A DNA stretch of 64,000 bases from Escherichia coli (lineage in GTDB: Bacteria > Pseudomonadota > Gammaproteobacteria > Enterobacterales > Enterobacteriaceae): the NCBI RefSeq assembly GCF_024298765.1, contig NZ_CP101210.1, one strand, 5' to 3'. The notes below the pieces were generated by a model, which saw only the letters and a program-made list of their open reading frames with translations, did not search any database and had not been told where the DNA came from. Made by a program: the position numbers and the translations under genes. Shown piece after piece: positions 43,503 through 46,591 of this stretch. How positions within the stretch are numbered: the stretch's first letter is position 1; each line of letters opens with the position of its first letter.

Positions 43503-44876
43503 TTATTTTAATAACCGCACCCGGCACGTTTTTCCTTTAATCTTCCCGCCCTGTAACTGTTTCCATGCTTTATGAGCAACAGCCTGACGCACCGCGACAT
43601 AGACATGCGCCGGATGCACGGCGATTTTGCCAATATCTGCGCCATCAAGCCCGATATCTCCTGTCAGCGCACCTAATACATCACCCGGGCGCATTTTGGC
43701 TTTTTTCCCGCCATCGATACATAACGTTGCCATTTCTGCTTCCAGCGGCACAATGGAACTATTAACTGGCGGCGTTTGCCAGTTAAGTTTTATCTGCAAC
43801 ATGTCAGAAATGATATTGGCCCGCTGTGCTTCTTCCGGGGCACAGAAACTGATCGCCAGACCGCTATTTCCTGCACGAGCTGTACGACCGATGCGATGTA
43901 CATGAACTTCAGGGTCCCACGCCAGCTCAAAGTTCACCACCAGCTCAAGCGATTTTATATCCAGACCACGCGCAGCAACATCAGTCGCGACCAGTACACG
44001 GGCGCTACCGTTAGCAAAACGTACCAGGGTCTGATCGCGATCGCGTTGCTCCAGATCGCCGTGTAACGACAATGCACTTTGCCCTACTTCATTCAGCGCG
44101 TCGCAGACAGACTGGCAATCTTTTTTGGTATTGCAAAACACCACGCAAGAGGATGGCTGATGCAAGCTTAATAACCGTTGCAACAGAGGAATTTTGCCTT
44201 TGCTGGATGTCTCATAAAATTGTTGTTCAATAGGTGGCAGAGCATCTGTTGAGTCAATTTCAATCGCTAAAGGATCGCGTTGCACTCTTCCGCTGATTGC
44301 GGCGATGGCTTCCGGCCAGGTTGCCGAAAACAGAAGCGTCTGTCGAGATGCTGGCGCAAAACGGATGACATCATCAATGGCATCGCTAAATCCCATATCC
44401 AGCATGCGGTCGGCCTCATCCATCACCAGCGTATTCAACGCATCCAGTGATACCGTGCCTTTTTGCAGATGATCCAGCATACGGCCCGGCGTTGCCACGA
44501 TAATATGCGGCGCATGTTGCAACGAATCACGCTGCATACCGAACGGTTGACCACCGCACAACGTCAAAATTTTGGTATTTGGCAGAAAACGCGCCAGCCG
44601 ACGCAATTCACCTGCCACCTGATCCGCCAGTTCACGCGTAGGACACAGCACTAAAGCCTGGGTTTGAAATAGCGACGCATCAATTTGCTGTAACAAGCCG
44701 AGGCCAAAAGCCGCCGTTTTGCCGCTGCCGGTTTTCGCCTGCACGCGAACATCTTTTCCGGCAAGGATCGTCGGAAGCGCGGCGGCCTGCACCGGCGTCA
44801 TGGTTAAATAACCCAACTCATTAAGGTTCGTGAGTTGGGCGGGAGGCAAAACATTCAGGGTAGAAAAAGCGGACAC
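43503..44876 (-). CDS. dbpA: ATP-dependent RNA helicase DbpA (DEAD-box)
   Basis: 457-aa ORF (GTG start) with Walker A TGSGKT and DEAD motif. Confidence 0.95.
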   Translation of the reverse strand: MSAFSTLNVLPPAQLTNLNELGYLTMTPVQAAALPTILAGKDVRVQAKTGSGKTAAFGLGLLQQIDASLFQTQALVLCPTRELADQVAGELRRLARFLPNTKILTLCGGQPFGMQRDSLQHAPHIIVATPGRMLDHLQKGTVSLDALNTLVMDEADRMLDMGFSDAIDDVIRFAPASRQTLLFSATWPEAIAAISGRVQRDPLAIEIDSTDALPPIEQQFYETSSKGKIPLLQRLLSLHQPSSCVVFCNTKKDCQSVCDALNEVGQSALSLHGDLEQRDRDQTLVRFANGSARVLVATDVAARGLDIKSLELVVNFELAWDPEVHVHRIGRTARAGNSGLAISFCAPEEAQRANIISDMLQIKLNWQTPPVNSSIVPLEAEMATLCIDGGKKAKMRPGDVLGALTGDIGLDGADIGKIAVHPAHVYVAVRQAVAHKAWKQLQGGKIKGKTCRVRLLK

Positions 44877-44905
44877 AATTTATTCTCGTGGTCATCGACG
44901 CAAAG

Positions 44906-45079
44906 TCAGCAGGCGCGTATCCTCGCAGATCTACGCTCACGATGCGACAATTTAATCGGTTCTTCGTCGGGTGGTGGGTCAGGCATGGGTTGCGGGCGAG
45001 GGATCGGATCGGGCACTGGAACAGGATCGCCAGGAATCGGTTCAGGGACAGGAATTTGCAAATAAATAAGTGTCGTCAT
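44906..45079 (-). CDS. Candidate small proline-rich protein (57 aa), unannotated in the ORF track
   Basis: Hand-translated MTTLIYLQIPVPEPIPGDPVPVPDPIPRPQPMPDPPPDEEPIKLSHRERRSARIRAC; SD GGAGGG 4 nt before ATG; ends 30 nt before dbpA start. Confidence 0.35.
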   Translation of the reverse strand: MTTLIYLQIPVPEPIPGDPVPVPDPIPRPQPMPDPPPDEEPIKLSHRERRSARIRAC

Positions 45080-45136
45080 ATTTCCCTCCGGTCATTGGGT
45101 GGACTCTTAAAGGGTAGACGCTGACAAATAACAGGC

Positions 45137-45258
45137 AAAAAAAAGCCGACTCATCAAAGTCGGCGTCGTACGAATCAATTGTGCTATGCAGTAATTCAAA
45201 AAAGGAAGTAAGACAATATGGAGCGCAACGCCCATCGCTTGACGTTGCATTCACCTGC
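45137..45258 (-). ncRNA. fnrS: FnrS small RNA (FNR-activated)
   Basis: Reverse complement reads gcaggtgaatgcaacgtcaagcgatgggcgttgcgctccatattgtcttacttcc... ending in hairpin gccgactttgatgagtcggc + U8; between zntB and dbpA. Confidence 0.85.
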
Positions 45259-45293
45259 AAGAGAGATATTGCCCTGAATGGGTAGAGAGTTTA

Positions 45294-45307
45294 TTGACTT
45301 CGCTCAA
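45294..45307. promoter_or_regulatory. FNR box (TTGAC-N4-CTCAA) centred ~42 bp upstream of the fnrS 5' end
   Basis: 8/10 match to TTGAT-N4-ATCAA at class II spacing. Confidence 0.6.
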
Positions 45308-45353
45308 ACTTTGCGGCGTTTTTGTATACAGACAGCCGGGAAAATTGCTTTTG

Positions 45354-46358
<1,005 letters not shown>

Positions 46359-46591
46359 TTATTTTGTAGTCTAGCCTTCTGGCCCTGTTACGCAACATCT
46401 CATCACCCCATTACCCTGAAATGATTAATAAAATTCTGTCTAAATTGAATACAAAAAGCAAAATGCTTTTCCATATACAAACCGTGTGAAGTGTTAAATA
46501 GCGTCTATCATTATCAGAATTATCTGATCATATGACGTGGCTTTTTTGCGATCGGATAGCAACAAAAATTGATAAAAATAACGGGATCTCA

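Follow-up and report, generated by a model that had tools for sequence, protein, structure and literature searches.

Protein-level and nucleotide-level constraint in ynaL, an annotated small-protein gene between fnrS and dbpA of Escherichia coli

We identified the proline-rich open reading frame (ORF) that separates the small RNA gene fnrS from the helicase gene dbpA in Escherichia coli as ynaL, a small-protein gene that is already known to be translated and is restricted to the Enterobacteriaceae. The finding itself is ordinary, an annotated small-protein gene rediscovered in a 64,000-nucleotide stretch of contig NZ_CP101210.1 (assembly GCF_024298765.1; the whole stretch is hereafter the window). 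What is new relative to the literature that we searched is anatomical and hypothesis-generating only: the gene is under dual constraint, a hairpin is predicted at its 3' end and a subfamily of the protein carries an alternative tail. The best explanation, to which we assign a probability of about 0.8, is that YnaL is a free-standing small protein and that the end of its gene overlaps a cis element linked to dbpA. Our literature search retrieved no function for YnaL, and a single paper among those searched mentions the protein together with dbpA. The anatomy thus offers handles on the role of YnaL and on the expression of dbpA: a core selected as peptide, a tail frozen as nucleotides with a probable hairpin, a likely promoter of its own and lineages that uncouple the ORF from the element.

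Identity, distribution and expression signals of ynaL

The ynaL coding sequence occupies positions 44906..45079 on the minus strand (ATG start, 57 codons plus a TGA stop) and translates into MTTLIYLQIPVPEPIPGDPVPVPDPIPRPQPMPDPPPDEEPIKLSHRERRSARIRAC, the same 57-aa sequence that a preliminary description of this DNA had obtained by hand. The coordinates agreed as well, as did the GGAGGG Shine-Dalgarno (SD) sequence (45084..45089, minus strand) placed 4 nt (AAAT) ahead of the ATG; the GGAGG/AGGG and the ATG are conserved in all loci. Upstream lies fnrS (45141..45258, minus strand; Rfam FnrS, 134.8 bits), which is the upstream neighbor of ynaL-type ORFs in every arrangement that we examined. Downstream is the gene for the ATP-dependent RNA helicase DbpA (43503..44876, minus strand), which starts with GTG. 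The spacings given in the preliminary description (~58 nt past fnrS and 30 nt ahead of dbpA) were close to those that we found: ~60 nt from the Rfam boundary of fnrS to the ynaL ATG (57 nt per the K-12 annotation), and a 29-nt spacer (44877..44905, minus strand) from the ynaL stop to the dbpA GTG at 44876, with a weak SD-like GAGA inside.

The same description had called the ORF unannotated, which existing records contradict. RefSeq lists it as the small-protein gene ynaL, encoding “proline-rich small protein YnaL” or “protein YnaL” (WP_001296046.1), and the K-12 copy is b4743 (1409308..1409481), between fnrS (b4699) and dbpA (b1343). The protein matches the Pfam family PF23677 (YnaL) over residues 1-57 of 57 with 136.9 bits, compared with a cut-off of 27 (E = 2.1e-40). 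Its 57-aa sequence is that of the family, the HMM match covers its full length and the gene is likewise flanked by fnrS and dbpA; nothing sets it apart from the family, of which it is the founding member. Two papers already report the ORF. The exact YnaL sequence is among 36 small proteins detected via chromosomal SPA tagging and immunoblot, in a study that also places it next to dbpA and mentions its positive result in a tetracycline ribosome-profiling screen (VanOrsdel, 2018; PMC6001520). That screen gives the identical 57-aa small ORF among its start sites (Nakahigashi, 2016; PMC4909307, supplement file 3), so the profiling check proposed in the preliminary description had already been answered in print.

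The 701-nt zntB-dbpA region that contains ynaL is present at 95% identity or more in 5392 of 5426 complete E. coli genomes. An IS200C-family element is inserted inside this region in one E. coli strain (NZ_CM142927.1). The YnaL family comprises 162 protein clusters from Escherichia, Salmonella, Citrobacter, Enterobacter, Klebsiella, Raoultella, Kosakonia, Leclercia, Lelliottia and other genera. Searching 1.84 billion representatives with a profile yielded only 37 hits, nearly all of them small proteins, and the family is narrow and found only in the Enterobacteriaceae. The SD, ATG and reading frame are conserved in 29 of 29 genome loci from Escherichia to Enterobacter and are also kept in five further loci that were fetched by exact protein (Klebsiella, Raoultella, Kosakonia, Leclercia and Superficieibacter). 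The gene order zntB-(fnrS)-ynaL-dbpA-ttcA is shared by the 29 loci and the five additional ones, and in all of them the ynaL stop lies 14–30 nt upstream of the dbpA GTG. Because SD, ATG and frame are conserved in all loci and the indels seen are in frame, the ORF is far beyond what chance would produce. These indels are an in-frame 33-nt deletion in E. coli E69 (L009 3001-3141), which leaves a 46-aa YnaL, and an in-frame 30-nt (10-residue) duplication in the Salmonella protein P0053. Both are located between PxP repeats and look like frame-preserving repeat slippage.

A putative promoter lies directly past fnrS. Its -35 hexamer, TTGCCT (45133..45138, minus strand; 4/6 consensus matches), overlaps the end of the T-run of the fnrS terminator, and its putative -10 hexamer, TACCCT (45111..45116, minus strand; 3/6 matches, namely T, A and the final T), is part of a 7-mer, CTACCCT, that is invariant in the inter-genus alignment. 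The 16-nt spacing between the hexamers is found in 55 of 61 unique locus variants, with a spacer of variable sequence; the exceptions are the ORF-less Kluyvera-type loci and three Citrobacter sp. loci in which the ORF is present. A sigma-70 promoter calls for two hexamers, 16–18 nt apart, with at least 4/6 matches each; a promoter consensus scan left the pair unflagged. We consider TTGCCT-N16-TACCCT a probable ynaL promoter. By-eye comparison with the consensus sequences of FNR, CRP, ArcA, sigma-54, sigma-E and sigma-28 gave no convincing site. Downstream, a scan found no terminator-like site between ynaL and dbpA and, given also the 29-nt gap, the two genes are likely to be co-transcribed in E. 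coli. RNAduplex, a crude method for this purpose, paired FnrS with the ynaL-dbpA mRNA no better than it paired shuffled sequences (z from -0.8 to +1.9).

A core selected as peptide and a tail frozen as nucleotides

The YnaL protein has three layers: a variable N-terminus, an acidic core of PxP repeats and a basic tail. In the protein alignment, the N-terminus varies and the remainder, DPVPxPDPIPRPQPMPDPPPDEEPIKLSH...RSARIRAC, is nearly invariant. The PxP core spans ~23 residues, [S]DPVPTDPVPxPDPIPRPQPMPDPPP, with 6 D+E vs. 1 K+R and a net charge of -5; the tail has a charge of +5. The proline-rich core (codons 18-38, DPVPVPDPIPRPQPMPDPPPD; 44966..45028, minus strand) carries the signature of protein-level purifying selection, with pS of 0.61, pN of 0.08 and a pN/pS ratio of 0.13, compared with 0.095 for dbpA and 0.10 for zntB in the same 33 loci. 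Judged by these substitution patterns, the core is the part of YnaL that is selected as peptide. In the basic tail, PIKLSH...RSARIRAC, the codons are conserved at the nucleotide and not at the amino-acid level. A disordered or extended conformation is expected for YnaL. Of 120 family cluster representatives, 110 contain PPP, which forms part of DPPPD in the window sequence; some lineages have DPSPD or DPPQE in its place. Ribosome stalling at a polyproline stretch such as DPPPD is plausible from what is generally known about EF-P.

Past the core, the mode of constraint changes. Block A (codons 39-46, GAAGAACCGATTAAATTGTCGCAT; 44942..44965, minus strand) has synonymous sites that almost never vary. 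It is followed by 9 nt (codons 47-49; 44933..44941, minus strand) that are free in sequence and fixed in length, and then by block B (AGATCTGCGAGGATACGCGCC, codons 50-56; 44912..44932, minus strand), which is invariant at the nucleotide level, including its rare codons AGA, AGG and ATA; the only base that varies changes GCG to GAG. Codons 39-46 and 50-56 have a pS of 0.04 and a pN of 0.036, for a pN/pS of ~1. The codon for P41 is CCG in 34 of 34 loci, as opposed to the three or four codons used for the other prolines. As a baseline, only 2.1% of the invariant-residue codons of dbpA and 2.6% of those of zntB are also codon-invariant, and runs of 12 or more invariant nucleotides occur in neither gene. 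When set against this baseline, the frozen synonymous sites indicate that the last third of ynaL is constrained as nucleic acid.

Folding predicts an RNA hairpin in this tail (44909..44940, minus strand) that ends one nt ahead of the ynaL stop codon. It comprises a variable lower stem, an AG/AC internal loop, a 4-bp AUCU/GGAU stem and a GCGA loop of the GNRA type, which is GAGA instead in Kosakonia-type loci. The variable 9 nt provide the 5' strand of the predicted lower stem and tend to pair with the invariant ACGCGCCUGC via different sequences and registers (GCAGGCGC, GCGGGCGC, CACGGGCGC and CAGGCGCGG). Among 46 unique variants, the native order of the 9 nt folds more stably than shuffles (mean z of -0.91), and for 15 of the 46 variants at most 5% of the 9-nt shuffles fold as well. 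In the hairpin alignment, 75.9% of cells are paired vs. 25–52% in slid controls, four pairs change on both sides and the covariation score was reached by 1 of 500 shuffles; the shuffle controls overstate the support because the sequences are related, and the upper stem never varies and so cannot show covariation. The E. coli hairpin is modest (-9.8 kcal/mol, z = -0.30), the folding energy of the junction is not unusual (z = 0.22 over 123 nt, and 1.92) and an RNAalifold consensus of the whole junction reached only -7 kcal/mol, with covariation contributing little. These predictions suggest that the frozen tail holds a probable RNA hairpin with a GNRA loop that, in function, would belong to the dbpA junction and not to the peptide. 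Rfam covariance models run on window positions 44000..46000 (E ≤ 1) matched FnrS only, with none over blocks A and B.

Block B is present as a single copy in the window. An 18-mer, TCTGCGAGGATACGCGCC, recurs in unrelated GC-rich genomes (L039, L052, L068, L074 and others) as the codons of a CEDTR motif read in another frame, in genes that apparently encode RsmI-type methyltransferases. Matches to block B in metagenomes outside ynaL loci were mostly CEDTR-motif coding sequence and were set aside as chance matches.

Lineages that uncouple the ORF, the element and dbpA

A metagenome scan for block B and the follow-up of named genomes revealed three informative arrangements. In Kluyvera ascorbata (L159 3690-3830) and two metagenome contigs (L125 and L135), the order is zntB-fnrS-dbpA, without the proline-rich ORF. 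The SD, the ATG and the proline-rich region (~130 nt, the 5' two-thirds of ynaL) are gone from these loci; block B and the 9-nt spacer are intact and block A is recognizable, with its core GATTA..TGTCGCATC kept in Kluyvera even though the ORF is missing there. In the one contig that we checked, ZntB shares 95% identity with its K. ascorbata counterpart. The Kluyvera-type loci retain an open 14-codon remnant frame (TTG/ATG-SH...RSARIRAC) without an SD. A sub-threshold Rfam isrO match over FnrS in one of them (L135 7836-7982; 23 bits vs. a gathering threshold of 42) is probably noise. Two Kosakonia-like contigs (L049 and L112) have an early TAA before block B and conserve block B.

The reverse arrangement is found in Phytobacter diazotrophicus (L164 2501-2677), Franconibacter (L162 3463-3615) and one metagenome lineage (L165 2501-2632), where zntB-fnrS is followed by a ynaL-like ORF with the same core and a different, also proline-rich tail (...PQPIPDPPLEPDPKPIVDPPPYMR). 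These three loci have no dbpA downstream and neither block A nor block B. The L165 ORF is followed by a terminator-like hairpin, inspection by eye shows one in Franconibacter as well, and the next gene is a convergent ttcA. The L165 dbpA is 1.9 kb away, behind another terminator and with a different upstream region. Even without dbpA downstream, the core has a pN of 0–0.06 for a pS of 0.57–0.72. The loci appear to define a second YnaL subfamily, with an alternative proline-rich C-terminus and no downstream dbpA. Because Kluyvera has the element without the ORF and Phytobacter, Franconibacter and L165 have the ORF without the element, the proline-rich peptide and the frozen element behave, on this comparative evidence, as separable modules, the peptide traveling with fnrS and the element with dbpA. 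At the Yokenella locus, we found neither ynaL nor dbpA.

The same lineages bear on what kind of element the frozen tail is. Rather than as an RNA hairpin, blocks A and B could act at the DNA level, as a promoter or operator of dbpA inside ynaL (e.g., with TGnGAGGAT as an extended -10). The 9-nt spacer is constant in length, including in the non-coding copy of Kluyvera, and the one variable position of block B, where GCG becomes GAG, coincides with the “n” of TGn. Further, the TTGCCT-N16-TACCCT spacing is broken in Kluyvera, so that dbpA would need another promoter there, and the relocated dbpA of L165 has, by eye, TGCTAGCAT in a block-B-like sequence. However, the consensus scan returned no promoter-like site at blocks A and B, and the best -35 candidate, TTGTCG, is 20 nt away. 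The variable strand stays complementary to its partner via different sequences and G-U pairs, a pattern that fits a sense-strand RNA better than DNA bound by a protein. On balance, we regard a DNA element as possible, tending toward unlikely.

Relationship to dbpA and to known regulatory systems

The preliminary description had left two readings of the ORF side by side, a small proline-rich protein and a regulatory leader peptide for dbpA. The first stands, as the ORF is translated and its core is under selection; the second is undercut by the separation of ORF and dbpA in nature. In its strict form, the leader reading takes ynaL as a cis-acting leader or arrest ORF only, in which EF-P-dependent slowing of the ribosome at DPPPD, or slowing at the rare AGA/AGG/AUA codons, remodels the mRNA and sets dbpA translation, much as in secM-secA or with the leaders mgtP and mgtL, and the peptide has no role. 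The layout of the junction invites this reading: in every canonical locus the ORF stops 14–30 nt ahead of dbpA, the dbpA start codon is GTG and its SD is weak, PPP is carried by 110 of the 120 cluster representatives and the 3' end of ynaL runs into a conserved RNA element. It is also possible to draw a helix between ynaL GUCGCA and dbpA UGUGAC, with 97.7% of cells paired. Its extended form (ynaL GAAGAA/CG/GUCGCA with dbpA UGUGAC/CG/UUUUUC) is highly paired as well; however, its two strands hardly vary, we saw no double changes that would count as compensatory and Kluyvera lacks the outer half. Nor did ensemble modeling with a ribosome at P37, H46 or R55 consistently open the dbpA start region. 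Purifying selection still acts on the proline-rich ORF of Phytobacter, Franconibacter and L165, none of which has dbpA downstream of it, dbpA and the element persist in Kluyvera after loss of the ORF, and DPSPD or DPPQE replaces DPPPD in some lineages. The natural lineages, the absence of PPP from some of them and the modeling all disfavor a role as dbpA leader only, which we consider improbable.

At positions 44871-44876 (minus strand), dbpA of this strain reads GTG TCC (Ser2), in place of the GTG ACC (Thr2) of 24 of the 25 taxa compared, a difference that costs the drawn ynaL-dbpA helix one pair.

Known leader systems provide a further comparison. Like ynaL, secM is a small ORF that ends near its downstream gene (secA), encodes a conserved peptide and has a 3' end that overlaps a conserved RNA. 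The SecM arrest motif is FxxxxWIxxxxGIRAGP. YnaL, by contrast, has no such arrest motif: only “IRA” is common to both, the F/W/I spacing is missing and no signal peptide is evident. The RIRA of the YnaL tail is what we take to be a faint echo of the GIRAGP of SecM. Also unlike secM-secA, ynaL and dbpA occur apart in some genera and the sequestering helix is unsupported. Since the motif is absent and the linkage to dbpA is not obligate, YnaL does not appear to be a SecM-type arrest peptide. In Salmonella, the proline-codon leaders mgtP (of mgtCBR) and mgtL (of mgtA) sense Pro-tRNA or EF-P activity. They resemble ynaL as short ORFs with consecutive proline codons upstream of a gene, and a dependence on EF-P is plausible for ynaL. 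However, YnaL conserves a long PxP peptide rather than just proline codons, and its ORF survives without the downstream gene.

The dbpA element has a precedent in deaD, a DEAD-box helicase gene that is autoregulated through its 5' leader (Ojha and Jain, 2020; PMC7430678). The parallel is that of leader control of an E. coli DEAD-box helicase gene, with a conserved hairpin just upstream of dbpA. However, the dbpA element has no similarity to the 23S rRNA target of DbpA, and any DbpA binding or autoregulation at this element would be hypothetical. Mimicry of 23S rRNA by the dbpA leader was rejected, as local alignments did not outscore shuffles, either for the 153-nt DbpA substrate region (P = 0.75) or for the whole 23S rRNA (P = 0.96).

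As a protein, YnaL shares with the proline-rich spacer of TonB and with proline-rich antimicrobial peptides (PrAMPs) the alternating X-Pro repeats and an expected polyproline-II segment. TonB models scored well short of their cut-offs on YnaL (11 bits vs. 33 for Pfam TonB_N and 20.8 vs. 315 for NCBIfam TonB), and a search of PDB chain sequences (E ≤ 10) produced no YnaL match. PrAMPs are cationic, with PRP-type sequences, whereas the YnaL core is acidic, with a net charge of -5, and has no export signal. YnaL is, as far as its sequence tells, neither SecM-type nor TonB-type nor PrAMP-like.

The free-standing small protein that we favor could be made and act as follows. Transcription of ynaL would begin at its own promoter directly past the fnrS terminator and run on into dbpA. 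Ribosomes finishing ynaL would melt the predicted hairpin just ahead of the stop codon, and termination 29 nt from the weak dbpA GTG may allow some translational coupling. YnaL itself would act as a free protein, most likely through its acidic, polyproline-II-type PxP core as a binding segment. DbpA is a helicase that acts on the peptidyl-transferase-center region of 23S rRNA. A bolder proposal, and a long shot in our estimation, is that, in the canonical arrangement, the GNRA hairpin is a new cis-regulatory RNA of dbpA, with translation of the polyproline ORF as its readout, or else an operator bound by DbpA or another protein. If true, DbpA synthesis would be tied to the capacity of ribosomes for proline peptide-bond formation, through EF-P-dependent passage of DPPPD followed by melting of the hairpin.

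The last reading, a chance open frame or a true gene in the antisense glycine-rich ORF (76 aa; 44835..45065, plus strand), which draws on the short, low-complexity sequence and on an antisense frame that is open in the window and shares its wobble positions with ynaL (so that codon periodicity alone cannot tell the frames apart), has virtually no chance of being correct and is already refuted by antisense stop codons in 28 of 34 loci, the conservation of the ynaL SD, ATG and frame across genera and the published tagged protein (VanOrsdel, 2018) and ribosome-profiling start (Nakahigashi, 2016). The antisense ORF is a shadow of the CCN codons of ynaL and not a gene, just as the preliminary description had read it. 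Another small ORF annotated by RefSeq in the window is ynaN (b4773 in K-12), a 15-codon ORF just upstream of zntB (~46351-46398, minus strand).
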